Below, piece by piece: positions 4,572 to 59,742 of a stretch of DNA of 60,459 nt (position 1 is its first letter; each line of letters starts with the position of its first letter). The DNA comes from a virus. Its lineage: Duplodnaviria > Caudoviricetes. The stretch covers positions 1-60,459 of the IMG/VR virus record IMGVR_UViG_3300033150_000902; one strand, 5' to 3'. A model generated the notes under the pieces. The model did no database searches. It saw nothing but the letters and a program-made list of their open reading frames with translations, and had not been told where the DNA came from. The translations under genes and the position numbers were made by a program.

Positions 4572-5319
4572 ACGTCACCTGTATAGCTTTGCTTATAGTA
4601 CACGGTTGTTCTTTAAACGTATTGTGTGTCAACCTATTGTTTGTTCGTTGATTGGCCCCCGCATACCAATGAATACCTACCGTCTTTTTAGGGAGTTGGT
4701 CCACTACATGACGGAAAAGGGCCCGTCGCATCCGAGCCCACGGCCAATTATGAAATGGATAAACAGTTTCAGATGGCAACCATCTATGATTATCGGAAAT
4801 AGACAATGCTTGCAGTAAGGGAGCCCCACAACTTTCATAATTATCAGGAGCGTATCTATTTAAAGCAATCTCATAAACCTCCTTCCAGAAACTACAAGGT
4901 TTGCCTTGCATAAAAGAAACAGGACAGTACCCAAAATCAAATCTAATTAATTGCACTTCTTCTGTTATCTCCGGTACAGGCTTGATATAAACAATGTCCA
5001 TATCCGAAACCGTGCCACCATAATCCGCCAGTAACTTCCAAGCCAACAAATCACTTGTATGCACTTCAGGAGCGTGCATCAAAGCAATATCCGGATACAA
5101 CATATCCAAAGGTACAATCTCCAAATTCGGCAAGTCATTCAGGCGTTCGGTGTAATCAGGCCCAGTGTAATGAGTCATGTCTTGCTTTTCCGTCCAATCA
5201 TGGCCTACTCCCTCTGATCTCACTATCAGGACTACTCTATCATTTAAGGCGCAAGCGGAATGCACAGTCATGTACCTCAAGAAACTCATTGTCTTGTTGC
5301 CCCAGTACAGCCATATCAT
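4561..5319 (-). CDS. DXD-motif glycosyltransferase (GT32-like)
   Basis: LYWG, SDLLAWKLLADYGGTVSDMD, GAPL, IHWYA. Confidence 0.7.
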   Translation of the reverse strand: MIWLYWGNKTMSFLRYMTVHSACALNDRVVLIVRSEGVGHDWTEKQDMTHYTGPDYTERLNDLPNLEIVPLDMLYPDIALMHAPEVHTSDLLAWKLLADYGGTVSDMDIVYIKPVPEITEEVQLIRFDFGYCPVSFMQGKPCSFWKEVYEIALNRYAPDNYESCGAPLLQALSISDNHRWLPSETVYPFHNWPWARMRRALFRHVVDQLPKKTVGIHWYAGANQRTNNRLTHNTFKEQPCTISKAIQVTYES

Positions 5320-6287
5320 TACACAAACTCCTCGTGATCTATAGAGTCATTCATGATTCTCAAAGCCTGGTTGTAGTCCTCGTAGTAACACTTGACACAC
5401 TGCCTTCCATCAAACCAATCTTGCTCTTTCCAAATACGCTCCACATCTTCAATCCATCCCATCCTCATAGAAGGCACATAATCATACCCGGGCGGGTCCT
5501 GCGCATATTGCACCCCGCAACAGGGATATATGCCTCCGTCCGCTCCCACCACCGGCTTCAACAAACTCACTCTACAATCTTTGACGCCCGCCGTACACTC
5601 AGACCGGTCTTGAAAGATTACTTTTGAAACATCCACTGCTTTATCTTCCAAGTATTTCTTTACATGCTCCATCTTAGCGGATACCCGTTTTGTATCCATT
5701 ATATCTGTTACCAACCTCACGTGGGTGAACCCCCATTGATTGGCAAATTGAATAGTAGTGCTGATCAAGTGATAATTGGGTTCATTACTAAGTACATATG
5801 AAAACGCCCAATCAACTTGCCCAGTATCACAGACCACCTTATAAATGGCTTCCCAAGGCATCTCACGATGATCACCCACCGATATCCGTATCCACGTCAA
5901 TCGATCCATAGTGGAGCCTAATAGTTTTTCAAATTGGGTTCCATTAGTCACCAATCCTACCTTAATTCCCAATGACACAGACTGTCGGATGAGTTCATTG
6001 ATATTAGGGTACAACAATGGTTCCCCTCCGCCAGTAATTGTCATTGCCCTAGCTCCCATGCCAGCACACGTACGAACAAACTTCATCAATCTTTCAAACT
6101 CCATCCGCTCCCATCTATTCCGCATAGCGCACGAGCAGAACGGGCAATCAAGATTGCACACATTGGTAGGATTGATTTGCAAATGGACTGGCGGTATGAA
6201 TCCTCGTTTAATCGCAGCTACAATTTCAGGTCTCAAAAGCAACTTCCAAGGCACATTACCAGCCGCTGTATAAGATATTCTTTTCAT
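5319..6287 (-). CDS. Radical SAM protein with C-terminal SPASM/twitch-like domain
   Basis: CNLDCPFC (CxxxCxxC), TGGGEPLL, VTNGT, DGGIYPCC, C..CYY. Start moved to 6287 (ATGA overlap with the upstream gene). Confidence 0.85.
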   Translation of the reverse strand: MKRISYTAAGNVPWKLLLRPEIVAAIKRGFIPPVHLQINPTNVCNLDCPFCSCAMRNRWERMEFERLMKFVRTCAGMGARAMTITGGGEPLLYPNINELIRQSVSLGIKVGLVTNGTQFEKLLGSTMDRLTWIRISVGDHREMPWEAIYKVVCDTGQVDWAFSYVLSNEPNYHLISTTIQFANQWGFTHVRLVTDIMDTKRVSAKMEHVKKYLEDKAVDVSKVIFQDRSECTAGVKDCRVSLLKPVVGADGGIYPCCGVQYAQDPPGYDYVPSMRMGWIEDVERIWKEQDWFDGRQCVKCYYEDYNQALRIMNDSIDHEEFV

Positions 6288-6967
6288 GCCTTCCTCCATA
6301 ACTCCGCTACAGGTCCCTCTGTTATAGTGTGTAATCGAGGGGTGCCTGACCACGCCAAAACTCTTGCCTTCTTTGGAATACGGGAACCCTTCCCGGTTCT
6401 TTTCTTACCCACTATGTAGTCATCGGGCAGATAGTCTTGTAAACGTGGTACGTCTAAGCCTACGACGGATGCCACAAAGCCTTGATCACCATGTCTCCAT
6501 CTCTCCCGTTTTGCTTTCATGTGTTCGTCTGGTTTCTGACAAAACGTATGATAGATTTTAGCACAAGAAGGAAAATTACCTGCCATTACTCCTGTCGCCA
6601 GATTCAATTCACGCCTATGTTTAAACGCATAGTGCTGATTGAACCCCCGCAAGGTAATGAAAGGGAATTCAAAAGCCAAACGAGCCAACTCATCTATGTT
6701 ACCCAAAATGATGGTATCAAGATCGAAATATAAGCAAGCCTGAAAGGGTAAATCCGGTCTGAATAATTCAATCTTGCTCCACCATCCCGGCCACTTGTGC
6801 TTTAAAGGTATCGTTTCGCAGAAGTTAACAGAAGAAGGATTATCTGTCAGGCATATAAACTCATGATCCAAAGACAGGTTAGCACTTACTCCCTCATAGA
6901 GCTTTCTGACATACTCCTCTGTATAAACTCTACCTGTTTTATAGACACAAACCACATTAAGCTTCAT
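6284..6967 (-). CDS. Glycosyltransferase (GT8-like, phage type)
   Basis: FICLTD, GWWSKIELF, YFDLDTII, GDQGF. Confidence 0.75.
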   Translation of the reverse strand: MKLNVVCVYKTGRVYTEEYVRKLYEGVSANLSLDHEFICLTDNPSSVNFCETIPLKHKWPGWWSKIELFRPDLPFQACLYFDLDTIILGNIDELARLAFEFPFITLRGFNQHYAFKHRRELNLATGVMAGNFPSCAKIYHTFCQKPDEHMKAKRERWRHGDQGFVASVVGLDVPRLQDYLPDDYIVGKKRTGKGSRIPKKARVLAWSGTPRLHTITEGPVAELWRKA

Positions 6968-26469: not shown

Positions 26470-27216
26470 CTAAATTAAGGCGGTTTTCTTTGCCTGCTTT
26501 CCGTACTGGTCATAATCACCGCCTGCGCGATTATGTTTCGACTTTGTTTTAGACGCTTCCACGGATTCAGGGAACACTCCGGTCCAGCCGTTCTCAATAG
26601 ACCGACGAAGGGCCATGATAACTTCCCTCTTATTGTGCTTACTTAGTTTGTTGGCGATCATCTTTCCGGCGCGGGGAGTGATCGGCTTATGTATCTCTTT
26701 ACGGTGCATGGCGTATTCCTTGAGTATTTTTTTAAGGGCGGTGCTTTGTCTCCACTCTTCAGGGAGATGCTCAAGTATTAAGTCTATCGAAGAGCCTCCC
26801 TTACCTTTTTTACTATTCTTCTTCTTTGTAGTCTTTGGTTGATCTTTGCCTGTCTTTTGGTTGTCCTCTTTTTCTTTGTCATTTTGGTATATATCATAAT
26901 TAACAATAGAAATTATACTATAATGGGCGTTCCTTTGGACAGTCAGTTTTCCCATGCTTCTTAATTTTTCAATTTTGTTGCGGACTGTGCTCTCTGGCAT
27001 ATCAAGCTCCTTTGCGGCGATTTTCCTACCAAAAAGGAACTGCCCCCTTTCAAGAAAAACCTCTATCTGCCTTCTGTAGGTGGACACACTCACCCAGGCG
27101 TCTTCATACTTTGCTTGACAAAGGCACCATATCCAAACCTTAAGGAGCTTCTCATTTTTAAATATCTTGCTGTCTATTATTTTTCTATAAAGGCGGAACC
27201 ATCCTTTGCTGTGCAT
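26470..27216 (-). CDS. Phage replication initiator (replisome organizer)
   Basis: GWFRLYRKI, LERGQF, wHTH, IVNYDIYQ, C-terminal SIENGWTGVF; upstream of the DnaC-like gene. Confidence 0.8.
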   Translation of the reverse strand: MHSKGWFRLYRKIIDSKIFKNEKLLKVWIWCLCQAKYEDAWVSVSTYRRQIEVFLERGQFLFGRKIAAKELDMPESTVRNKIEKLRSMGKLTVQRNAHYSIISIVNYDIYQNDKEKEDNQKTGKDQPKTTKKKNSKKGKGGSSIDLILEHLPEEWRQSTALKKILKEYAMHRKEIHKPITPRAGKMIANKLSKHNKREVIMALRRSIENGWTGVFPESVEASKTKSKHNRAGGDYDQYGKQAKKTALI

Positions 27217-27399: not shown

Positions 27400-27750
27400 T
27401 GTCCTCTCAGCTGTCCTATTTTTATTTTGCCCCCTATGTAACTATCGTAATTTATTAGAAAAAAACAGTGGTTATGCCTGTCCTCTCAGCTGTCCTTTGC
27501 CTGTCCTATTTTTATTTTGCCCCCTATGTAACTATCATAATTTATTAGAAAAAAACAGTGGTTATGCCTGTCCTTTAATTTCCCTTAATTGTCTTGTGCC
27601 TGTCCTCTCAGCTGTCCTCTCAGCTGTCCTCTCAGCTGTCCTGTTTTTATTTAGTCCTTTGGCAACTATCATAATTTATTACTAAATTCTATCGTCATGC
27701 CTGTCCTCTCAGCTGTCCTCTCAGCTGTCCTCTCAGCTGTCCTGTTTTTT
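27400..27750. repeat. Iteron-like repeat region, probable replication origin
   Basis: CTGTCCTCTCAG in tandem (3x near 27600 and 3x near 27701) plus single copies; a ~74-bp block at 27411 and 27501 (period 90, one mismatch); flanking T-rich tract; adjacent to the initiator gene. Confidence 0.7.
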
Positions 27751-28080: not shown

Positions 28081-28980
28081 TTACTCCCACTTCAATGCCT
28101 CTTTTGTTAGTTTACGGGCTTGATCAATAGACAGACTGCCCGGATCACCTTCTATGGTAATAATCCGGGAAGCCACGCCAAATATCTTCAAATCAGACAT
28201 CAGCTTTTTGGCTTGTTCTTGCGCTTGCGGTTCATCATCAAAAATAATTGTTATCTTGTTGAAGTACTTTGCCATTTCGGTGACTTGTTGAGGTTTGTAA
28301 TTGATCCCGAATGTTGCAAACGCTTTTGGACCTAATTTCCAAACATCGGTAATACCTTCAACACATATTCCTGTCCGATCTTTCCAATGTTGTTGAAGTC
28401 CGTACAGTATATTTTTGTGATGTAGAATTTCCCTGTCTTTCGGACACGCTCGATATTTCGGGATGGCATTGTTATTGATTGCCCTGGTTTGAAAAGACAC
28501 CATTCTTTCATTCCAATAGACAGGAGCCAGTATCCTGTGTTTGTAGTCTATTTTGTCAAGCATGGAAACAGGGCCTGTTCCTAGGACGCCCCATTGAGCG
28601 GCTAAATATCCGGGATCAAACCCCCGCTTTTTTAGATACTGGAGATGTGGAGTTTGAAGCTTGTTTGTATTTGAGGGCAGTTGGAAAGGTTTAGGTTGAA
28701 TCCCTTCAGAGGTGAATTGGTGTTCTTTCCCTCCGTATTTTGGAAGAAGATTTCGTATCTCTGTTTGAGACAGCCCTGTTAATTTGGCTAAAGTCTCTAC
28801 TAATGGATGCCAGCCACACCTCCAGCACCTAAATTGATTGGAGGATAGGTTGAAACACAGGTGTTCTGACGGGTCATCACAGAACACACATTTCATACCT
28901 ATCCATCCTTTCCCTATATTCTTGCCTGATGTTAGGTAAGAAACGGAATAATCCTCTAAGAATCGTTTAATTCTCATCAC
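28081..28980 (-). CDS. DNA primase (Zn-binding + TOPRIM)
   Basis: CVFC...HL...CWRCG; VEGITD; IFDDE. Confidence 0.85.
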   Translation of the reverse strand: MMRIKRFLEDYSVSYLTSGKNIGKGWIGMKCVFCDDPSEHLCFNLSSNQFRCWRCGWHPLVETLAKLTGLSQTEIRNLLPKYGGKEHQFTSEGIQPKPFQLPSNTNKLQTPHLQYLKKRGFDPGYLAAQWGVLGTGPVSMLDKIDYKHRILAPVYWNERMVSFQTRAINNNAIPKYRACPKDREILHHKNILYGLQQHWKDRTGICVEGITDVWKLGPKAFATFGINYKPQQVTEMAKYFNKITIIFDDEPQAQEQAKKLMSDLKIFGVASRIITIEGDPGSLSIDQARKLTKEALKWE

Positions 28981-32901: not shown

Positions 32902-33558
32902 TTATTCCTCCTCAAATTCCCATGCTTCTGAAAAATCACGATCCGCGAATAATTCCGCTAACCCCGCAATTTGTTTTAATCGTAAAACCTCGTCTGGCTC
33001 CATTCCTAATTCTTTTCCAATTCGTTTGTCGCTCCAGTTGCGGCGCGAAAGTTCTACAATGATATCACTCATTGATTCAATTTGGTGTTTTCCTCGCGCA
33101 CGATTGTGTCTTATTGTTGCGGCTATACGATCATTGCGGCCCTGTCGTTCTTTATTGATAATAGAAAGAGGTAAATATCCTCTTAATCGTTTCTTGATTT
33201 TTTGTGATTCTTTGCCTACTCTGTTACGATGGAATCCGTCAACAACTTCATAACCATTTTCCCCCAACCATGCTACAATGGGTTGGGTGAAACCATCCAT
33301 GCCTATTGAATGTTCTAATAAGCGCATTTCTGGCGGAGCGACCACGTTTGGATTATAATCATTGGCATTAACCGATTCCGCATCAATCCAAAGCACACAA
33401 TCAACCGGCTCTTTGTGCATAGGACTGACTTCGTGCAAGGCAAGCTTGACATGATTAAGCACCTCAATTTTTTCATTGTCTGACAGCATGTTTATTTGTT
33501 CGCAGATGGATTTTATTTGTTCCAGTATTTTTGTGCCTAATAATCCAATATCCCCCAT
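32902..33558 (-). CDS. ibrB: ParB-like protein, IbrB family
   Basis: ANDYNPNVVAPPEM, GFTQPIV, VVDGFHR, TIRHNRARGKH. Confidence 0.8.
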   Translation of the reverse strand: MGDIGLLGTKILEQIKSICEQINMLSDNEKIEVLNHVKLALHEVSPMHKEPVDCVLWIDAESVNANDYNPNVVAPPEMRLLEHSIGMDGFTQPIVAWLGENGYEVVDGFHRNRVGKESQKIKKRLRGYLPLSIINKERQGRNDRIAATIRHNRARGKHQIESMSDIIVELSRRNWSDKRIGKELGMEPDEVLRLKQIAGLAELFADRDFSEAWEFEEE

Positions 33559-34748
33559 TGACGTCTCCTTTTTTTCATCATTTTCATGTAGTTATCGTAT
33601 GCGGGCGATTTATGCTGACTGAAAGACAGGCCCTTGCACCAGTAATCGTTACGTAGCAAGGCCTTGCAAATGCGCCGCCAGGACGGCACTTTCCGCGCCG
33701 CTTCGTCTTTCGGATCGGCCTCATCTGGTATGCCGTGCGGATATCCACGGTCTTGCCACCAGTGCAGGAACACCGCGATTTTGTTTTTGTAATGCTCCTG
33801 TCTTGGGGCGGGGAGACTTTCTAAAATCAGCTTGGCGAACGATTCCCATGTATGTCCTTCCGGGCGGGTTATTTTAAGGTTGCCTAAAATGTTGCCGGAC
33901 TCGCGTGCGTAAAGTGCTCCCTGATTAGCTCCATTGACACGGGCAACAACTCTCCCCCATGTTTCCGGCTCTATGATTTGGAATAACCATAACCCCTTGC
34001 GTTGATCGTCTCCATACGGCTGGCAAATCCGCTGCATGTGGATTGACAAGCCTGCTTTTTGCATCAGGTCATAGAGGCGGTTATAAGGCTTTTTAAATTT
34101 GCCTGTATACGTCCAGACATCTTCCGTCCGCCAATCATAGATCGGGTAGACGTTAAAAAGAGTCTTGCCTACATATGTTGTCCAGGCATGTCCCTCAAAG
34201 CTTGCTTTTTTGCCCATGATCGTGCGGAAACGGTTAAGACTTTCATCTGTCCGAATTCCAACAAAACAAGCCGTTAATTCTCCTTTGGCGTACCAATGGC
34301 CGAATAACGGCACAAACTCCTCAAACTCCATGCCGCGCCAAAAAAAGGGGAAGAAATTCTCATCGGTAATAGCTATTTCTGGTGGCTTGCGCACCCAGGC
34401 TTCTTGTTTATCAGGGTCCCAGCACAACCACTGCGGCTCAAACATAGAAACCGCGTTACGCAGATTGATGGGCAAGGCTACCCAATAGGGTGTGATATGA
34501 TCACGATAGAGATCATAACACTCCAATATATGCTCTATGGTGAGCTTATACTGGGCCTCCAGATCGACAAATAACACGCCGACCTCGCGATCTCTTTTAA
34601 TGGCTTCTTCCATTACCAGATGGAGCATGACGGATGAATCTTTTCCGCCCGAAAAAGAAACATAAACTTTCTGAAACGTATCAAACGTCCATGAAATACG
34701 ATCCCGTGCGGCGGTCAAAACATCTATGCCTAATGGTTTTTTAGCCAT
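33537..34748 (-). CDS. ibrA: PAPS-reductase-like/DUF3440 protein, IbrA family
   Basis: PP-loop SFSGGKDS, GIRTDESLNR, YPIYDW, RICQPYG, NDYWCKGLSF. Confidence 0.85.
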   Translation of the reverse strand: MAKKPLGIDVLTAARDRISWTFDTFQKVYVSFSGGKDSSVMLHLVMEEAIKRDREVGVLFVDLEAQYKLTIEHILECYDLYRDHITPYWVALPINLRNAVSMFEPQWLCWDPDKQEAWVRKPPEIAITDENFFPFFWRGMEFEEFVPLFGHWYAKGELTACFVGIRTDESLNRFRTIMGKKASFEGHAWTTYVGKTLFNVYPIYDWRTEDVWTYTGKFKKPYNRLYDLMQKAGLSIHMQRICQPYGDDQRKGLWLFQIIEPETWGRVVARVNGANQGALYARESGNILGNLKITRPEGHTWESFAKLILESLPAPRQEHYKNKIAVFLHWWQDRGYPHGIPDEADPKDEAARKVPSWRRICKALLRNDYWCKGLSFSQHKSPAYDNYMKMMKKRRRQWGILDY

Positions 34749-37983: not shown

Positions 37984-38592
37984 ATGGAAATTAAAAGAAG
38001 TCAGTTAAGTGCCGTGGCTAAAGAATTAAATGAGGTTCTTGGTCTTGAGCCTCCTATTGATTTTAAAGCTCCTGTCGGTGAATTAATGGAACAACTTGAA
38101 GAGGCTATTACTCTGATTGATCCTGTTGATGATGAGTTTACGCCCGAAACACAAGCGGTAATTGATCAATTAATGAAGGAAGAGAAACAAGAGGAACAGG
38201 AGAAACAAGAGGAACAGGAGGAAGAAGAGGGGAAGGAAACGCAAGAAGAACAAGAGAAACCAGAAGAGGAACAGCAGGAGGAATCACAAGAGGAAGAACA
38301 AGAAGAGGAAATACAGGAGGAAGATACGCAAGAAATTGTAGAGCCTCAGAAAGCCTTACAAGAAGAGGAATCCCAGGAGCCCCCAAAGAAAAAGAAGGGA
38401 AAATCTTATTTTGCAAAAATTGATGCGTTCATTGAGGATACTGACAAGCCTTTCACAATTGAGGACGTCACAAAACAAGTTGGATGTTCAAAACAGTACG
38501 TGTACTCCTATTTTCCGGCATTAGTTAAAGCTGGAGTATTGATTAAGAGCAGAAACGGGCGTACTGTCATCTTTCAGAAAAAAAATAAGTGA
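37984..38592 (+). CDS. Acidic low-complexity protein with C-terminal winged HTH
   Basis: E/Q-rich linker; FTIEDVTKQVGCSKQYVYSYFPALVKAGVL. Confidence 0.6.
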   Translation: MEIKRSQLSAVAKELNEVLGLEPPIDFKAPVGELMEQLEEAITLIDPVDDEFTPETQAVIDQLMKEEKQEEQEKQEEQEEEEGKETQEEQEKPEEEQQEESQEEEQEEEIQEEDTQEIVEPQKALQEEESQEPPKKKKGKSYFAKIDAFIEDTDKPFTIEDVTKQVGCSKQYVYSYFPALVKAGVLIKSRNGRTVIFQKKNK

Positions 38593-39941: not shown

Positions 39942-41174
39942 GTGAAAGAACCGGGAAAATTTTTTCCAAATTCCCAAATCGAAAGTATTGTCAATCTGAA
40001 CGGGCGTCCTTTGTCTTGTCCTTCTTGCGGGTTGTATAAATACGTCCTTTCCCCGCGAATGGAACCGTTTGGAAAGTTCAAGAAAAAAATTCTGAACATC
40101 GGAGAAGCACCTGGCGAGACGGAGGACAAGAAAGGGAGACAATGGCAGGGTAAAGCAGGGCGGGCGTTGCGGCGAATGTATAGACAGTTGGGAATTGACT
40201 TGTTTGAGGATTGCCTTAACATCAACGCGGTAAACTGCCGTCCCATGACCAAACGCGGAACAAACCGAAGCCCGACATCACATGAGATAGCCTGTTGCAG
40301 AAAACGGGTCTTGGACGTTATAGAACAATACAAGCCGCATGTTATTATATGTCTGGGCAATCCCGCGATTGAATGTTTGATAGGTTATAGATGGAAACGA
40401 AATCTGGGGGGAGTTACAAAGTGGAGAGGTTGGATTATCCCTGATCGTGATTTTCAAGCCTGGATTTGCCCCACTTTCCATCCGAGTTATGTAGAGCGCA
40501 TGGACAGTCAGGATATAGACACTATTTGGAGACGGGATTTAGAAGGGGCTTTGTCCATGCAAGCCGTTCCTTTTCCGAGATTTCCAAATGAAGAGAATCA
40601 GGTAGAGATTATTGACAGTCCAGAACTCCTTGAGCCTTTTCCTGAATTGGTAGCCTTTGATTACGAAACCACCGGACTGAAACCTTATGCTAACGGGCAC
40701 CGCATTGTTTGCGCTTCTATCGCTTACAATGAAAATTATGCGGTCTCTTTTATGATGCCTACAGTCCCTTCTGAGAGAAAAAGATTCATACATTTACTCA
40801 GGGCGAAAGACATCGGCAAAATGGCCCATAACATGAAATTTGAAGAGTCGTGGAGCAAAATCAGGCTCCGTCAACCTGTAGAGAATTGGCAATGGGACTC
40901 AATGCTCGCCGCGCATGTATTGGACAACCGTTCAGGAATCACGGGATTGAAATTCCAAACATACGTGAATTTTGGAGTTGTGGATTATGACAGTGAAATA
41001 AACCCGTACCTAAAGGCAAAAGACGAAAAGAACGGAAACTCCCTGAACAGGGTAAACGAACTGATCGAAAGCGCGAACGGAAGGAAGAAATTACTAACAT
41101 ACTGCGGGCTTGATAGCTTATTTGAATACAAGTTGGCAATGAAGCAAATGAAGGAGATAGGAGTGAAAATATGA
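39942..41174 (+). CDS. Uracil-DNA glycosylase family 4-like domain fused to a PolA 3'-5' exonuclease domain
   Basis: CPSCGL, IGEAPG, NAVNCRP, TFHPSY (UDG4); AFDYETTGL, AHNMKFE, YCGLD (Exo I-III). Confidence 0.85.
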   Translation: MKEPGKFFPNSQIESIVNLNGRPLSCPSCGLYKYVLSPRMEPFGKFKKKILNIGEAPGETEDKKGRQWQGKAGRALRRMYRQLGIDLFEDCLNINAVNCRPMTKRGTNRSPTSHEIACCRKRVLDVIEQYKPHVIICLGNPAIECLIGYRWKRNLGGVTKWRGWIIPDRDFQAWICPTFHPSYVERMDSQDIDTIWRRDLEGALSMQAVPFPRFPNEENQVEIIDSPELLEPFPELVAFDYETTGLKPYANGHRIVCASIAYNENYAVSFMMPTVPSERKRFIHLLRAKDIGKMAHNMKFEESWSKIRLRQPVENWQWDSMLAAHVLDNRSGITGLKFQTYVNFGVVDYDSEINPYLKAKDEKNGNSLNRVNELIESANGRKKLLTYCGLDSLFEYKLAMKQMKEIGVKI

Positions 41175-41542: not shown

Positions 41543-42374
41543 TTCAAATAACCTTGCTCACATGGCGAAATACAGCGGCAGAGGTTTGGATAACGGCGTG
41601 GTATATGTTTTCCTGATAGGACTACTGACTCTTTGCCGGTTGTATCAAACCACGGATGTTGTGTTTGCTTGGGACAGTCGAAAATCTCTGCGCCGAAAGT
41701 TGTATGATCCGATGTATAAAAAGACCCGTATAGACGCAAGGGCGGCTAAAGACCAGGCAGAGCAAGAATACGATAAGGAGGCGTTCGCTCAATTTAACGA
41801 GCTCCGACGTTTTGTATTGCCTGATATGGGATTCAGAAATATCTTTCAATTCACCGGATACGAGGCGGATGACATACTCGTTGGATTGTGTAGGGACAAC
41901 CCAGATATTAATAAGATCGTGGTAAGCAGTGATCATGATCTGTTTCAAGTGTTGGCGTATTCTCGTACCGTAATCTATAATCCAAGATCGAAGAAAGAAA
42001 TTAATGCTCAAGAGTTCACGGAACAGAAAGGAATAGACCCTGCTGACTGGCCTATTGTCTTGGCCATTGCCGGCGACCCTGGCGACGGCGTGGTTGGCAT
42101 TAAAGGAATAGGTGAAAAGTATGCTATTAGATATTTGCGGAATGAATTATCCTCGTCTTCCAAGCGTTACAAATTGATCACGGAAAATTGGGATACGGTA
42201 GAGAAGAATATTCCTCTTGTGAAATTGCCTCTTGAAACATGGGATAAGCGAATTGCCTTGAATGAAAATGATATTACCGAGGAACGATTAAGAGCCGTGT
42301 TTTCAAAGTATAAATTTAACTCATTCTTGCATGGGAAGTACCGTCAAGGATGGGAAACGTTGTGTGTTTTGTAA
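41529..42374 (+). CDS. 5'-3' exonuclease / flap endonuclease (PolI N-terminal-like)
   Basis: LLIDSNN, YKKTR, YEADD, SSDHDL, GDPGDGVVGIKGIGEK. Confidence 0.9.
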   Translation: MLLIDSNNLAHMAKYSGRGLDNGVVYVFLIGLLTLCRLYQTTDVVFAWDSRKSLRRKLYDPMYKKTRIDARAAKDQAEQEYDKEAFAQFNELRRFVLPDMGFRNIFQFTGYEADDILVGLCRDNPDINKIVVSSDHDLFQVLAYSRTVIYNPRSKKEINAQEFTEQKGIDPADWPIVLAIAGDPGDGVVGIKGIGEKYAIRYLRNELSSSSKRYKLITENWDTVEKNIPLVKLPLETWDKRIALNENDITEERLRAVFSKYKFNSFLHGKYRQGWETLCVL

Positions 42375-42376
42375 GG

Positions 42377-42709
42377 AAGAAGCCAAGGGGCCAAAGAAAC
42401 CCAGGCTCCCCAAGCGAGCCAATGTTTTGAAGAAACCCACGACGCTCAAGCGAGCCAGTGAAGGGAAGAAACCCATGGTTGAGAAGCGAGCCAACCCACA
42501 CGAGAAGCCCAAGGAGCACGAAGTGAGCCAATAATGCGAAGAAACCCAAAGGCAGAAAGCGAGCCAGGTTTTCCAAGAAACCCAATAAGGATAAGCGAGC
42601 CAGTTATGAAAGAAAAGAAACCCAAAAGCTGAAAGCGCGCCATCGAGCTCAAGAAACCCATGATGACAAAGCGAGCCAAGGTCAATAAGAAACCCAGCGT
42701 AACTAAGCG
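42377..42709 (+). repeat. TIGR-type array 1 (nine 36-nt units; predicted guide-RNA precursor)
   Basis: Alternating AAGCGAGCCA and AAGAAACCCA with unique spacers, mostly 8 nt (e.g. 42412, 42430, 42448); one 9-nt and one 12-nt spacer. Confidence 0.9.
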
Positions 42710-42762
42710 TATCGGCCCTGAAACCTAGAAACCTTTAACCCCAAACAGAAAGGAGTCTTAAA

Positions 42763-43731
42763 ATGGCGAAAGAAGAACTGAAAAAGAAAATCCTGAAAAC
42801 CCAGAACGGACTATGCGTTTTGACAGGAGAACCGCTCCCTGAAGATTTATCCCTGTTGGATACTGATCGGGAACAACAGAAAGCCGAGGGCGGCATCTAT
42901 ACAGAGGATAATACCAGGGTGGTAACTCCAGTGGCGCATATGGCAAGACACGGCAACCTGCGATTACGAGACAAAACATTAGACAAACTGAAAGCTCTTG
43001 TAGATGACCGTGAGCAAACAATGAAGTTATACAACAAGATAAATAACCAATTGCTTGCTTACCAAAGACGAACCGACAACCTTAATAATTCCACAATTGC
43101 TTTTCTTACTGACCATCTTGAATCGGTGGAAAAAGCATTGAAAGAAGTGACAAAAAAGGTTGAGAAGGAAGTGAAAAATCTTGCTAAAGTTAACCCTTTT
43201 GTGGCTACCATTCGGGCCGTCTCGGGTATAGGCGACATAACCGTAGCCTACTGTTTGGTCTATATTATTCTTGAAAAGGCTCCGCATGTATCGAGTTTAT
43301 GGAAGTACGCGGGCCTTCACGCACCTTCGCATAAACGGTATCCGAAAAAAGGAGAAAGTACGAAGGGCGGAGGCGGAAATAAAGCCCTGAGAACGGCGTT
43401 GTGGAATATGGCTAATTCGCAAGAGAAAAACATGAAAGGGGCTTACCGTCCAATATATGATCAGGTAAAAGCAAGGCTGGCGCAAAGTGATAAAATTGTT
43501 GAAACCAGAAATACTCAAGGTGTGCTTGTAAAAGTCCCGTGGAAAGAGGCGAAACCGTGTCACAGGCAAGGCGCGGCAAAGCGGGCGGTTATGAAGCATT
43601 TCCTTGCCGATTACTGGTACGTTGGAAGGACGCTGGCGGGGTTGCCTACAAATCCCCCCTATGCCGAGGCCATACTCGGGAAGGAAGGGCACCGAACAGT
43701 CGATCCGAGAGCAAGAGGATGGGTATTCTGA
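42763..43731 (+). CDS. tasH: TIGR-associated protein, TasH architecture (HNH-like + coiled coil + Nop/IS110 C-terminal domain)
   Basis: QNGLCVLTG...GGIYTEDN...AHMARH (HNH-like); VSGIGDITVA, SSLWKYAGL, GNKALRTALW, AKRAVMKHFL (IS110 Transposase_20/Nop-like); no DEDD RuvC domain; RBS AAGGAG; arrays on both sides. Confidence 0.85.
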   Translation: MAKEELKKKILKTQNGLCVLTGEPLPEDLSLLDTDREQQKAEGGIYTEDNTRVVTPVAHMARHGNLRLRDKTLDKLKALVDDREQTMKLYNKINNQLLAYQRRTDNLNNSTIAFLTDHLESVEKALKEVTKKVEKEVKNLAKVNPFVATIRAVSGIGDITVAYCLVYIILEKAPHVSSLWKYAGLHAPSHKRYPKKGESTKGGGGNKALRTALWNMANSQEKNMKGAYRPIYDQVKARLAQSDKIVETRNTQGVLVKVPWKEAKPCHRQGAAKRAVMKHFLADYWYVGRTLAGLPTNPPYAEAILGKEGHRTVDPRARGWVF

Positions 43732-43781
43732 ATGTGAGTAACGCTTTAAGTAAGATAAAAAAGGAATCCATAATAAATGAA

Positions 43782-43935
43782 AAGCGAGCCACGATCCGTA
43801 AGAAACCCATGGAGGGCAAGCGAGCCACGATCTCGAAGAAACCCAGAGGACAAAAGCGAGCCAATAAACCGAAGAAACCCAACGAGAGGTAGCGAGCCAA
43901 AATTAAAAAGAAACCCAATGCGCTCAAGCGAACCA
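43782..43935 (+). repeat. TIGR-type array 2 (four complete 36-nt units)
   Basis: Edge repeats at 43782, 43818, 43854, 43890 and 43926 (exact 36-nt period) with AAGAAACCCA between them; a degenerate half-unit at 43761. Confidence 0.88.
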
Positions 43936-43980
43936 ATAGCCAATAGAGAGAAAAACCAAATACCCAGGAGGAATTAAAAG

Positions 43981-44772: not shown

Positions 44773-45516
44773 ATGTACAAATTAACTCAATTAGATGGAA
44801 CAGATTTTTATTCAGGTACGATTAATTATGCTGAAAATATAGGTAAAATCATTCGTGTTAAAGATTATGATGGCCCGGAATTTGGAGTATGTGGCAAGGG
44901 TATTCATGCAAGTCGTAATCCTAACGATTGCTTTATTGAAGCGAAAATACCCTGTCGGGCATTTAGAGTACAGGGGATACAACGTATTGTGGGGAATAAA
45001 AAGAAGTCCCAGTATCAAGCAGTAAAAGTATTGGAGGAAATAACTGATTTGGATAAACTATTTGGCTGGAAGTACTCGGAAGCCATTAATCCTATACATC
45101 CCTTTATGATAAAGTCTCCAAAAATAACAGATGAGCATATTAAGTTATTGGAGAAGTGGACTTCGGTCTGGGATTGGTCTATGTATTCTGTCGTGGCTTC
45201 GGTCAGGGATTTGGTCAGGAATTTGGTCGTGGCTTCGGTCAGGGCTTCGGTTGGCGGGAATTCGATTGTGGTTTCAGTCAGGGCTTCGGCCAGGGATTTA
45301 GTTAGGGCTTCGATCTGGAATACGGTCTGGGCTTATGTAGGTTCTATATTTCCGAATATTAAAAAATGGAAATATGTAAAACATAAACTTGGTGAATATC
45401 CTTTTCAACCCGCAGTGGACTTATGGAAGCAGGGATTTGTACCGTCATTTGATGGCAAGACATGGAGATTGCATGCGTGCAAAAAGTCAAAAGTTTTATG
45501 GGAAGGGGAAATTTAA
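44773..45516 (+). CDS. Phage protein with CG.GIHAS domain and 4-aa (xSVR/W) repeats
   Basis: VCGKGIHASRNPNDCF; 12-bp coding repeats at about 45160-45330. Confidence 0.55.
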   Translation: MYKLTQLDGTDFYSGTINYAENIGKIIRVKDYDGPEFGVCGKGIHASRNPNDCFIEAKIPCRAFRVQGIQRIVGNKKKSQYQAVKVLEEITDLDKLFGWKYSEAINPIHPFMIKSPKITDEHIKLLEKWTSVWDWSMYSVVASVRDLVRNLVVASVRASVGGNSIVVSVRASARDLVRASIWNTVWAYVGSIFPNIKKWKYVKHKLGEYPFQPAVDLWKQGFVPSFDGKTWRLHACKKSKVLWEGEI

Positions 45517-46428: not shown

Positions 46429-47823
46429 ATGCAAATCACCGCTACAACAAAAGACGCATACTATTTGCTTCATGAAGGGTCGCTGGCGTTCGCACGCGCC
46501 GAGCAGGTAGGACTTAGGATTGACGTTGAGTACTGTGAAAGACAAAAAGTAATCCTCGACAAAAAAATCAATCGATTGAAAACCAAATTTGAGGAAACGA
46601 AATTCGGCCAAAGGTGGAAGCAGATATACGGAGCAAAATTCAATCTGAACTCCAACCCGCAGTTGTCCTATTGCCTGTATAAAGTTTTGAAAATAGAGCC
46701 TGTCAAACTGACCGATACCGGCATGGGTTCGACTGATGAAGAGGCGTTGTCATCCCTTGAAATGCCCGAATTAGACTTGCTCCTGCAAATTCGTAAACTG
46801 ATAAAAGTCAAAGACACCTATTTGGACTCTCTTATCAGGGAGCAAGTGCGGGGAGTGATTCATCCTTTTTTCAATCTACATACAGTGCGGACTTACCGTT
46901 CAAGTTCTGACAGACCTAATTTTCAGAACATCCCGAAAAGGGATAAGGAGTCCCAAAAGATTGTTCGCGGAGCGATCTATCCCCGCCCTGGCCATCAGTT
47001 ATTGGAAGTTGACTACTCAGGGATAGAGGTCAGGATAGCCGGTGTCTATACGCAGGATGAAAAGTTGATTTACGATACAGTTCATGGGGACATGCACACA
47101 GATATGGCTATTGAATTGTACATGCTTGATTCCCTGAACAAACATCATTCAGGAGAAGCCCAGTTGCGGCAAGGGGCGAAAAACGGTTTTGTTTTCCCTC
47201 AATTCTACGGCGATTATTACGGTAATTGTGTTCCTAACCTTCTTAAATGGGCGAAGGACGCTACTCTTGAGGACGGCACGCCTGCCTTAGTCCATCTGAA
47301 CGATAAAGGATTGGTGAAACTGACCAAAACAGGGAAACTTAGAAACTCGGATAAATTCATGGATCATGTAAAACAAGTTGAAGATCAATTTTGGAATGAT
47401 CGTTATAGAAAATACACTGAGTGGAAAGAAAAGACTTGGAGAAGGTACCAAAAGACAGGATACATCGAATTCCTTAGCGGATTTCGTTGTTCGGGAGTCA
47501 TGCGTAAAAATGAGGTGCTGAACACTCCTATTCAGGGAACGGCCTTTCACTGTCTTTTATGGTCATTTATCCAAGTTGACAAACTTTCCCGGAAAGAGAA
47601 GTGGGATACTAAATTAATTGGGCAAATTCATGACTCAATGCTCTTGGATGTAAATCCAAAAGAACTGAATATGGTGGCTAAGAAGGTGCAAGACATTAGT
47701 TGCAACGAATTATCTAAGGCATGGCCCTGGCTAAACGTACCCCTTGAAGTAGAAGCTGAGATTTGTCCCGTGGATAGACCGTGGGCGGACAAGACAGACT
47801 GGGAAATCCCAAACAATTTTTGA
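46429..47823 (+). CDS. polA: Family A DNA polymerase, polymerase domain only
   Basis: FNLNSNPQL, SSDRPNFQNIP, motif A DYSGIEVR, motif B RQGAKN...YG, NTPIQGTA, motif C IHDS. Confidence 0.92.
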   Translation: MQITATTKDAYYLLHEGSLAFARAEQVGLRIDVEYCERQKVILDKKINRLKTKFEETKFGQRWKQIYGAKFNLNSNPQLSYCLYKVLKIEPVKLTDTGMGSTDEEALSSLEMPELDLLLQIRKLIKVKDTYLDSLIREQVRGVIHPFFNLHTVRTYRSSSDRPNFQNIPKRDKESQKIVRGAIYPRPGHQLLEVDYSGIEVRIAGVYTQDEKLIYDTVHGDMHTDMAIELYMLDSLNKHHSGEAQLRQGAKNGFVFPQFYGDYYGNCVPNLLKWAKDATLEDGTPALVHLNDKGLVKLTKTGKLRNSDKFMDHVKQVEDQFWNDRYRKYTEWKEKTWRRYQKTGYIEFLSGFRCSGVMRKNEVLNTPIQGTAFHCLLWSFIQVDKLSRKEKWDTKLIGQIHDSMLLDVNPKELNMVAKKVQDISCNELSKAWPWLNVPLEVEAEICPVDRPWADKTDWEIPNNF

Positions 47824-49448: not shown

Positions 49449-50522
49449 ATGGCAAGAAAAAGCCGGAAAACAAGTAGATTTGCAGGCAAGGTCAAGGCTA
49501 ACGCTAAAAAACAGCGTCAAGCCCAAACTCAGTATGGATACCTGAACCTGCCTCGTGAAATTAGTGTGTTCAACCCTGAGCCTGGCTCACGGGTAAAGCT
49601 GGACTTTTTGCCCTACAAGGTGACGGACGCAAGGCACCCTGATCGTGATAACGAGTTGGGAGTGGCCATTCCCGGAGAGCTTTGGTACAAGCGGCCTTTC
49701 AAGGTTCACCGAAACATAGGCGCGGGCAATGAAACAGTGGTTTGTCCTTCATCCGTGGGCAAAAAATGTCCTATTTGTGAATACCGCGGCAAAAGAATGA
49801 AAGAAGGCGCGGATAAAGAGGAACTGGACGCGTTAAAACTCTCGTATCGCAACTTGTACGTGGTGGTTCCTAAAAATTCCAAGAAGCATGATGAGGAACC
49901 CCATATTTTCGACATCAGTCAATTCCTCTTCCAAAATTTGCTTACGGATGAACTGGACGAGGACGAACGGTATGAAACATTCCCTGATCTTGAAGAGGGA
50001 TGGACTTTGCGCGTTCGATTTGATAGCCGAACAATCGGGAGCGGGAGACCGTTCGCCGACGCTTCCCGGATAGACTTTGAGGAAAGAGACGCGCCCTATG
50101 ATGAAAGCATACTGAAGAAAGTGCCTAACCTGGATGAAGTGTTGAATGTTTTATCGTACACGGAGCTTGAACGGAAGTTTATGGAATTGGAAGATGAACC
50201 GGAACCGGACGAAGAAATTGTAGAAGATGAAGAAATAGTGGAGGATGAAGAAATTGTGGAAGATGATGTTATAGAAGAGGAAGAAGAACCAAACGAGGAT
50301 GACACCTGCATTGCGTGCGAGGGAACAGGGAAGAACTCCAAAGGCAAAACATGCCGAATTTGCAGAGGAACCGGAAAGAAGAGAGAAACCGAAAAAGAGG
50401 ATAATCGTTGTCCTTACGGGCATACCTTTGGCAAGGACTGCGAAGAGTACAGGGAATGCGCGCAGAAATGCGAAGTATGGGATGATTGCATAGACGAGAA
50501 AGAGAGATTTCAAGATGAGTGA
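49449..50522 (+). CDS. Single-stranded DNA-binding protein (gp32-like) with acidic linker and Cys-rich tail
   Basis: LDFLPY, VH...VVCP..VGKKCPICE; DEEIVE repeats; CIACEGTG...CRICRGTG, CPYGH. Confidence 0.65.
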   Translation: MARKSRKTSRFAGKVKANAKKQRQAQTQYGYLNLPREISVFNPEPGSRVKLDFLPYKVTDARHPDRDNELGVAIPGELWYKRPFKVHRNIGAGNETVVCPSSVGKKCPICEYRGKRMKEGADKEELDALKLSYRNLYVVVPKNSKKHDEEPHIFDISQFLFQNLLTDELDEDERYETFPDLEEGWTLRVRFDSRTIGSGRPFADASRIDFEERDAPYDESILKKVPNLDEVLNVLSYTELERKFMELEDEPEPDEEIVEDEEIVEDEEIVEDDVIEEEEEPNEDDTCIACEGTGKNSKGKTCRICRGTGKKRETEKEDNRCPYGHTFGKDCEEYRECAQKCEVWDDCIDEKERFQDE

Positions 50523-59034: not shown

Positions 59035-59742
59035 ATGAAAAGAAGCGTGCTTGAACAATACAAAAAAGAGCTGGAGCAAGAATGTCAATGTAAAGAAAAA
59101 GAAGAGACCTGCGTCTTTTGTTATGCTAAGCAAGACATAGAGCAAATATTAAGCATGGCAGATGCGTTAGGCATGGAAGAAGAAATAACAATAAGAAGAA
59201 AAAGGGATGCTGATCGAGAAAGAGCCTTACAACGCTGGGATAGGTATTTTTGGGAAACAGCTAAAGTTGTAGCATTAAATAGCAGATGTCTAAGTAGAAG
59301 AATGGGATGTCTTTTGGTCAAAGATAATAGAATCTTATGCACAGGTTACAACGGGCCTCCCGCAGGTGTTCCTCATTGTGGAACTGCAAGATTAGAAAAA
59401 GATGCCTGGTTGAGAGAAATGGGAGAAGATGTCTTAACAGGAGATAAAGTTGATCGCGTATGCCCAAGAGCATTATTAGGTTATAAATTGGGAGAAAGAT
59501 TGGATATCTGTATCGGCGCACATGCTGAAAGAAACGCCTTAATTACAGCGGCCAGATATGGCATATCCACTGATGGAGCAAGTTTATATGTAACGGGTGA
59601 GGTACCTTGTAAAGATTGTTTAATTGAAATTATCAATGCCGGAATCAAGGAAGTGGTATGTACAAGAATGTCTTTTTATGATGACATGTCTAAATTTTTA
59701 GTAGATGAAAGTGGTTTAAAGGTTAGATTATTTGAACTGTAG
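59035..59742 (+). CDS. dCMP deaminase
   Basis: TGYNG, HAERNA, PCKDC, IINAGI. Confidence 0.9.
   Translation: MKRSVLEQYKKELEQECQCKEKEETCVFCYAKQDIEQILSMADALGMEEEITIRRKRDADRERALQRWDRYFWETAKVVALNSRCLSRRMGCLLVKDNRILCTGYNGPPAGVPHCGTARLEKDAWLREMGEDVLTGDKVDRVCPRALLGYKLGERLDICIGAHAERNALITAARYGISTDGASLYVTGEVPCKDCLIEIINAGIKEVVCTRMSFYDDMSKFLVDESGLKVRLFEL

Follow-up and report, generated by a model that had tools for sequence, protein, structure and literature searches.

An apparently intact TIGR-TasH locus in a tailed phage and the replacement of its spacers in a close relative

The virus record IMGVR_UViG_3300033150_000902 carries a gene for a 322-residue protein placed between two short arrays, in which two different 10-nucleotide (nt) repeats alternate with short spacers, and this arrangement raises the question of which kind of system it represents, whether the system is still intact and which DNA its guides would address. 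The window, that is, the whole stretch of DNA analysed, is the complete single-contig virus record of 60,459 bases, with a guanine-cytosine (GC) content of 43.9%. The locus is genuine and apparently intact, and is read here, with a probability of about 0.9, as a TIGR-TasH system of the dual-repeat type that belongs to a tailed phage and is an ortholog of the characterised one in Salicola phage CGphi29, whose TasH has known structures and biochemical activity. It is an ordinary member of the TasH group and no new kind of system, and homology allows its mechanism to be stated with high confidence.

The arrays, and the segment that precedes the second of them, are laid out as follows.

42376–42709, + strand: upstream TIGR array of nine units, beginning 2–3 nt after the stop codon of an exonuclease gene
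43732–43781, + strand: leader between tasH and the downstream array, with 44 of 50 positions the same in a related phage fragment (L012, described below)
43782–43935, + strand: downstream TIGR array of four units, whose last edge copy is AAGCGAACCA

Each unit is formed by AAGCGAGCCA (edge repeat), an 8-nt spacer A, AAGAAACCCA (loop repeat) and an 8-nt spacer B, which amounts to 36 nt (10+8+10+8). Exact copies of AAGCGAGCCA (nine) and AAGAAACCCA (twelve) are confined to the + strand from 42394 to 43917, and neither strand of the 60,459 bases holds any outside the locus; the chance expectation for a given 10-mer is about 0.1 per genome under a uniform model. When up to one mismatch is allowed, the locus contains 13 of the 15 edge-like sites on the + strand and 12 of the 14 loop-like ones, and the − strand holds no edge-like and two loop-like sites. 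All 26 spacers are distinct, with a GC content of 50.7%. The initial annotation had described a 322-residue gene between nine plus four units with every spacer unique, placed at 42377–43935; this description proved near base-exact, and its limits were right within a few bases.

The family is defined by two alternating repeats of 8–12 nt with short spacers, in a unit of about 36 nt, beside a tas gene and on the same strand (Faure et al. 2025, PMC12045711), and alternating repeats, unique spacers, a unit of about 36 nt and the same strand as tasH are what is found here. TIGR arrays were further described in that paper with truncated edge repeats at both ends, followed by a terminator. The upstream array agrees with the first part of this description, as it starts with a degenerate, 5'-truncated edge ending in AGCCA (42381–42385) and ends with a 3'-truncated edge, AAGCG (42705–42709). 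Edge and loop repeats both have the form AAG....CCA. According to Faure et al. (PMC12045711) edge and loop repeats must agree with each other in their box D and box C ends, as these attach to the two halves of a symmetric dimer; the AAG and CCA ends on both repeats conform to this rule. Box D is UG in TasR arrays (PMC12045711).

The gene between the arrays and its domains are the following.

42750–42755, + strand: Shine-Dalgarno-like AAGGAG, 7 nt before the tasH ATG
42763–43731, + strand: tasH, 322 residues, RNA-guided HNH endonuclease of the TIGR-Tas family (by homology, NCBIfam and predicted fold)
42763–42960, + strand: HNH nuclease domain, about residues 1–66 (121-sequence alignment, model and local HNH matches)
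42973–43191, + strand: two long antiparallel helices, residues 71–101 and 109–143 (predicted structure)
43195–43728, + strand: Nop domain, about residues 145–322, with the C-terminal Tyr/His processing loop, Y300 and H310 (Pfam, phmmer, fold and NCBIfam)

Comparison of the protein with the sequences of the PDB by phmmer retrieved TasH chains (21kl, 9w03, 9w04 and others) with an E-value of 1.1e-99, the alignment running from residues 7–321 of the query to residues 2–308, and at lower rank a TasR chain (9mty, E 1.2e-11) and IS621 (E 0.016). A tblastn search of 50,697 phage records returned four of them, the best being Salicola phage CGphi29 (52.7% identity, 98% query coverage). The protein passes the NCBIfam equivalog NF052498, "TIGR-Tas system RNA-guided endonuclease" (TIGR_Tas_endo), with a score of 102.5 bits (cut-off 100), and this curated NCBI model would give it its name. 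From an alignment of 25 sequences AlphaFold2 produced a model with a pLDDT of 89.3 and a pTM of 0.82, and the best Foldseek match of this model was chain 9w04_B of a TasH-tigRNA-double-stranded DNA complex, with template modelling (TM) scores of 0.87/0.90; TasR 9mty (0.50) and IS621 (0.43) were weaker, and no Nop5 chain appeared among the listed matches. Thus the structural and profile comparison that the initial annotation had proposed favours TasH ahead of TasR and returns a Nop-type C-terminus.

The model and the family profiles bear on the three parts that had been recognised from the sequence. At the N-terminus two strands (33–36 and 51–54) and a helix (56–63) form a region that, in local Foldseek matches, resembles the HNH domains of Cas9, Gme and McrA, in line with the HNH-like start proposed earlier. 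The coiled-coil region corresponds to the helix pair 71–101/109–143, which superposes on TasH in the model and is predicted to be a coiled-coil dimerisation domain by homology to SpTasH, the domain being so named in PMC13421893. The IS110/Nop-like C-terminus is borne out by TIGR_Tas_endo, above its cut-off, and by the only Pfam match, to Transposase_20 (E 5.4e-4), which falls slightly short of its own cut-off.

This last match, together with a match to PHROG 4285 "transposase" (E 2.9e-27) and one to the NCBIfam IS110 model NF033542 (E 4.6e-11), is what an IS110-family transposase gene with flanking repeats would also give. Such an identity is hardly credible. The IS110 model reaches 42.5 bits against a cut-off of 140 while the TIGR-Tas model passes, the N-terminus is HNH-like, and no DEDD or RuvC family is found in Pfam at E ≤ 10. 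Only the Nop-like domain is common to both kinds of protein, and the flanks are a dual-repeat array and not transposon ends. The transposase label of PHROGs is likely to be a source of misannotation for proteins of this type.

The family is large, with 316 relatives of the protein at E ≤ 1e-5 among 2,882 candidates. The closest two share 91% and 84% identity with it, and the majority of the others 51–60%. Two pattern-based scans (one from the protein and one from the 25-sequence alignment) detected no relative among 185,579 species genomes, a result that is no proof of absence; the clade looks confined to virus and metagenome contigs. A conservation alignment was made of 120 listed relatives and SpTasH (121 sequences). 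In the HNH region the eight positions conserved in at least 95% of them (D33, R36, G44, Y46, N50, P56, H59 and H63) are all present. An HNH-inactivating SpTasH mutant is listed as "H53A/N57A" in Table S3 of Faure et al. (PMC12045711); this numbering is not exactly mappable, the helix histidines of the CGphi29 open reading frame (ORF) being H54 and H58, which are equivalent to H59 and H63 of the window. SpTasH processes its own guides through Y289 and H296 (PMC13421893; Xu et al. 2026, 10.64898/2026.09.09.750476). The processing tyrosine, Y300 here, is invariant in the 121 sequences, and a histidine stands 7 to 10 residues after it in all of them, at +10 in 15 of the 121, including H310. The first 25 residues of the protein do not occur in the supplementary text of Faure et al., of which Table S1 is covered in part.

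SpTIGR-TasH, from Salicola phage CGphi29, is the closest described system. The architecture of HNH, coiled coil and Nop domain is common to both proteins, which are about 53% identical end to end, and the edge repeat is identical, AAGCGAGCCA; units of 36 nt, spacers of 8+8 nt, the Tyr/His loop and the location in a tailed phage are likewise shared, and both SpTIGR repeats start with AAG as they do here. The differences are few. The CGphi29 loop repeat is AAGACAACCA, which departs from AAGAAACCCA at 2 of 10 positions, its array lies downstream only, in contrast to the nine plus four units on both sides here, and after it come a GC stem and a run of T, where no terminator follows the present arrays. 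The processing histidine is at Tyr+7 there and at Tyr+10 here, and all spacers differ. Spacers of 9 nt are typical for the TIGR family, and 16 variable nt are stated for SpTIGR guides against 18 for TaTIGR (TasR) and FpTIGR (TasA) (Faure et al., PMC12045711); the 8-nt spacers in the CGphi29 array therefore fit the value given for SpTIGR. Taken together, the phmmer matches to PDB chains, the edge repeat, the conserved residues, Foldseek and NCBIfam agree on the TIGR-TasH family, as the initial annotation had proposed from the sequence.

The same annotation had regarded arrays on both sides of the gene as a variant layout, and this part did not stand. Relatives' loci were taken from IMG/VR (11) and from metagenomes (54), and those with at least 300 nt on each side of the gene were surveyed, the CGphi29 locus (L001) included; the resulting 30 TasH loci were not deduplicated and comprise a few overlapping contigs. 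Arrays lie on both sides in 15 of them, downstream only in 12 and upstream only in three. Since half of the judgeable loci are two-sided and the arrays were already published as lying upstream of the gene, downstream of it, or both (Faure et al. 2025, PMC12045711), the two-sided layout is no variant and is the commonest arrangement in this clade.

The phage origin of the locus agrees with the gene content of the record. Matches in PHROGs comprise the large terminase, portal and head proteins, and a replication module with a DnaB-like helicase, primase, family-A polymerase, clamp and clamp loader, within which the TIGR-tasH locus lies on the + strand. Judging from these genes, the source is a tailed phage, as had been annotated.

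A very close relative of this phage is represented by a 5.7-kb fragment (L012), which allows the two arrays to be compared almost position by position. The DNA of the two phages is 94.2% identical in the polymerase region and 93.3% in the clamp-loader region (98–99% in protein), and the DNA flanking the locus 88–94%. At the 3' end of tasH 214 of 238 positions are identical. The downstream array of L012 has also four units, with 87 of 90 repeat positions identical and only 23 of 64 spacer positions. Thus the scaffold is conserved and the variable parts are completely replaced, a pattern that supports a function of the spacers as guides and indicates that the scaffold is under selection. Divergence is also somewhat higher in tasH and the gene after it than in the polymerase, so that either recombination of the whole segment or turnover spacer by spacer may have produced the difference, and the two are indistinguishable here. 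Other changes are seen among more distant relatives. The pairs L032/L035 and L049/L053 differ by an internal gain or loss of two units, and L004 and L022 by one base in a spacer. Within L004 (3776–3847) two adjacent units are one base apart, which suggests duplication, and L050 and L051 have one unit in common in otherwise different arrays (8 and 29 units).

This comparison bears also on whether the 36-nt repeats could instead encode a lysine/arginine-rich repeat peptide. The period is divisible by three, and ORFs of 66–67 residues (42331–42534 and 43777–43977) span parts of both arrays. Such a peptide is nevertheless extremely improbable, as two units of 37 and 40 nt break the frame, 41 of the 64 spacer positions are changed in L012 but its repeats are retained, and the same edge repeat is found beside TasH genes whose proteins are only 50–57% identical.

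Several observations weigh against an intact TIGR-TasH system. In the protein, no HNH family is detected in Pfam even at E ≤ 10, and for this reason the HNH call rests on the homology to SpTasH and the local fold matches. The processing histidine is placed three residues further from the tyrosine than in SpTasH (+10 against +7). Alanine changes at nine SpTasH residues are reported to reduce processing (PMC13421893), and five of these residues are kept here while four differ (A187, N297, A303 and I304), in columns that vary across the family. In the arrays, the 36-nt period that had been annotated holds for the 11 of 13 units with the canonical 8+8 format and fails in unit 4, where spacer B has 9 nt (period 37), and in unit 7, where spacer A has 12 nt (period 40). 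Five repeat copies depart from the consensus, namely the loop of unit 4 (two changes) and four edges (one each). No intrinsic terminator was found 3' of either array, unlike the typical array end described for the family; three terminator-like matches lie all within unit 1, against 3.7 ± 1.9 in shuffled sequence, and four promoter-like sites compare with 5.2 ± 2.3. Finally, no convincing natural target was found in the phage, in related TasH phages or in IMG/VR scans with four of the guides (see below). In Rfam nothing scored above threshold, the sole match being STnc410 (E 0.28, 20 bits against a cut-off of 50).

The irregular units and variant repeat copies, along with the missing terminator, promoter and target, would fit a decaying relic in which protein or arrays no longer function. 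This is a very improbable outcome, given that the 322-residue frame is intact with every family-invariant residue kept, that most units are canonical, and that repeats and spacers have diverged so unequally from those of L012, which would indicate selection on the scaffold. The reading as an apparently intact TIGR-TasH system is retained. Since neither a terminator nor a convincing promoter bounds the arrays, both are probably part of a long + strand transcript of replication genes.

In this scenario the 13 guides of both arrays would be transcribed on the + strand, probably within that replication-gene transcript. Through its Nop domains a TasH dimer would bind the edge and loop repeats at their box C (CCA) and box D ends, and its own Tyr/His loop (Y300/H310) would cut the precursor within each edge repeat, which would release guides of about 36 nt. 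Of the two 8-nt spacers, A is expected to pair with one DNA strand and B with the neighbouring part of the opposite strand. The predicted target is written as spacer A and, after it, spacer B in reverse complement, a geometry derived from the published cut positions and 3' overhangs (PMC12045711). By analogy with SpTasH, the two HNH domains would then cut both DNA strands. No motif adjacent to the target is required by TasR and TasH (Faure et al., PMC12045711).

The guides were compared with several sets of DNA. When the 13 guides were placed on the phage genome in both geometries with gaps of 0–3, no site with up to one mismatch was found, and the five sites with two mismatches are at chance level (about three expected). 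A wider test confronted 349 unique guides from the window and 66 loci with 332 kb of TasH-phage DNA, with arrays masked; the parser accepts 8-nt spacers around a 10-nt middle repeat only, so irregular units are left out, and 350 mispaired (B-edge-A) guides served as controls. Among the TasH phages no perfect and 17 one-mismatch sites were obtained, against none and 19 in the controls. Exact scans of IMG/VR were made with the predicted targets of four of the 13 guides (D1, D2, U2 and U3) and with one wrong-order D1 control, with the following result.

D1: 8 loci in 4 unrelated clusters (DnaB-like helicase, two terminase contexts and one unknown)
D1 control: 2 loci in 2 clusters
U2: 7 loci in 6 clusters
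U3: 6 loci in 5 clusters
D2: 119 loci in 70 clusters

One of the D2 sites deserves a description. This guide of the downstream array (spacers at 43828–43835 and 43846–43853) has a match of 16 out of 16 positions, in the predicted cutting geometry, inside a gp33-like late-transcription regulator gene (phrog_254) that adjoins the helicase-loader gene. The site is present in 32 contigs of T4-like phages of about 36% GC (L209, at 1402–1632, and 31 related ones). The 16-mer also matches 69 unrelated clusters, mostly high-GC coding DNA, where it appears to spell common codons. On two whole contigs of the D2 clade (94 kb and 140 kb) the other 12 guides gave no perfect site and a single one-mismatch site, of D4. 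On these two contigs the 349 guides gave 10 one-mismatch sites in the true geometry against 15 in the controls, which had also one perfect site. The GC content of the clade, which differs from that of the window, weighs likewise against a genuine target. The D2 match is therefore probably due to chance, and the gp33 site is very unlikely to be a natural target. The competing phages, mobile elements or host that the initial annotation had put forward as targets thus received no match above chance in these searches.

A use of RNA-guided DNA binding mainly for repression or nicking, instead of double-strand breaks, has precedents, as repression by inactive TasR and by TasA was reported (Xu et al. 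2026, 10.64898/2026.09.09.750476), SpTasH turns into a nickase on mismatched targets (PMC13421893), and the protein has no Pfam HNH family. Here it is very unlikely, as the family-invariant HNH residues, including those of the active SpTasH, are all retained and no site within one mismatch in the genome offers an own target to regulate. It is unlikely in general that the phage regulates genes of its own, as none of the guides matches its genome, and the absence of self-matches fits a nuclease that has to spare its own genome. For the cutting TasH system favoured here, a role in cleaving the DNA of competing phages, or of other mobile elements within the shared host, is possible, at somewhat less than even odds, and one in cleaving host DNA is more doubtful.

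The system can also be placed among more distant ones. TasR and TasA systems (for instance TaTasR, 9mty) have likewise a Nop domain, a coiled-coil dimer and dual-spacer guides with box C/D ends, but a RuvC domain is present in TasR and TasA lacks a nuclease domain, in contrast to the HNH domain found here. The IS110/IS621 bridge-RNA recombinases have a related RNA-binding domain (Nop-like, Transposase_20) and use a single bridge RNA, whereas guide arrays and no DEDD catalytic domain are found in the present locus. The Nop fold, the coiled-coil dimer and dual guides anchored by C/D boxes are common to TIGR-Tas and to Nop5 and Nop56/58 of the archaeal and eukaryotic box C/D small nucleolar ribonucleoproteins (Faure et al., PMC12045711). 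Unlike TasH, these particles guide RNA methylation through fibrillarin. CRISPR-Cas loci likewise combine repeats and unique spacers beside an effector gene, but here two 10-nt repeats alternate, the 8-nt split spacers read both strands and there are no adaptation genes.

The surroundings of the locus show a few further features. The gene directly upstream of the first array is that of a 5'-3' exonuclease.

42372–42374, + strand: stop codon of the 5'-3' exonuclease gene

Two genes 5.25 kb apart (39942–41174 and 46429–47823) make up the family-A DNA polymerase, the first corresponding to the exonuclease part (positions 476–828 of phrog_17) and the second to the polymerase part (835–1238), and the stretch between them holds several small ORFs besides the 5'-3' exonuclease gene and the TIGR-tasH locus. 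In the relatives L008/L041 and L010 the polymerase halves are adjacent and TIGR-tasH lies just 3' of the polymerase or of the clamp loader. In L012 the gene for the polymerase domain is read as two ORFs (1541–2335 and 2301–2933) that overlap at 2301–2335, by either a frameshift or an assembly error. A tandem repeat with a period of 36 nt and a sub-period of 12 nt at 45156–45298 is coding, within an ORF of 247 residues (44773–45516), and has no relation to the TIGR repeats; comparable coding repeats are present at 38178–38333 and 50207–50288.

Elsewhere in the window, iteron-like repeats at 27411–27743 (CTGTCCTCTCAG, with 3.6 copies in each of two blocks, and a 90-nt repeat present in 1.8 copies) occupy the gap between a DnaD-like initiator/loader gene (26470–27216) and the primase gene (28081–28980), and this region is likely to be a replication origin. 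On the − strand, at 32902–34748, two genes overlap, one like ParB (phrog_2159, E 7.9e-71) and one like phosphoadenosine-phosphosulfate reductase (phrog_2302, E 7.3e-91). Together with a radical-SAM gene (5319–6353) and a dCMP deaminase gene (59035–59742), these may point to functions in DNA or nucleotide modification. No transfer RNA gene and no terminal repeat were found in the window.

What is new here is the pair formed by the window and L012, with complete spacer replacement; the weak candidate target of D2 is a further by-product. The origin and turnover of TIGR spacers and their targets were posed as open questions in the discussion of Faure et al. (PMC12045711), and this locus and L012, in which the scaffold and the number of units are kept and every spacer has changed, form a natural pair for the study of how TIGR spacers arise, turn over and what they target. 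The TasH described here is moreover a compact natural variant of an enzyme that is already in use for genome engineering. If the D2 site in the gp33-like gene were true, it would be the first natural target of a TIGR-TasH system and direct evidence of its use by phage against phage, and the change of spacers between the window and L012 would be a trace of that arms race.

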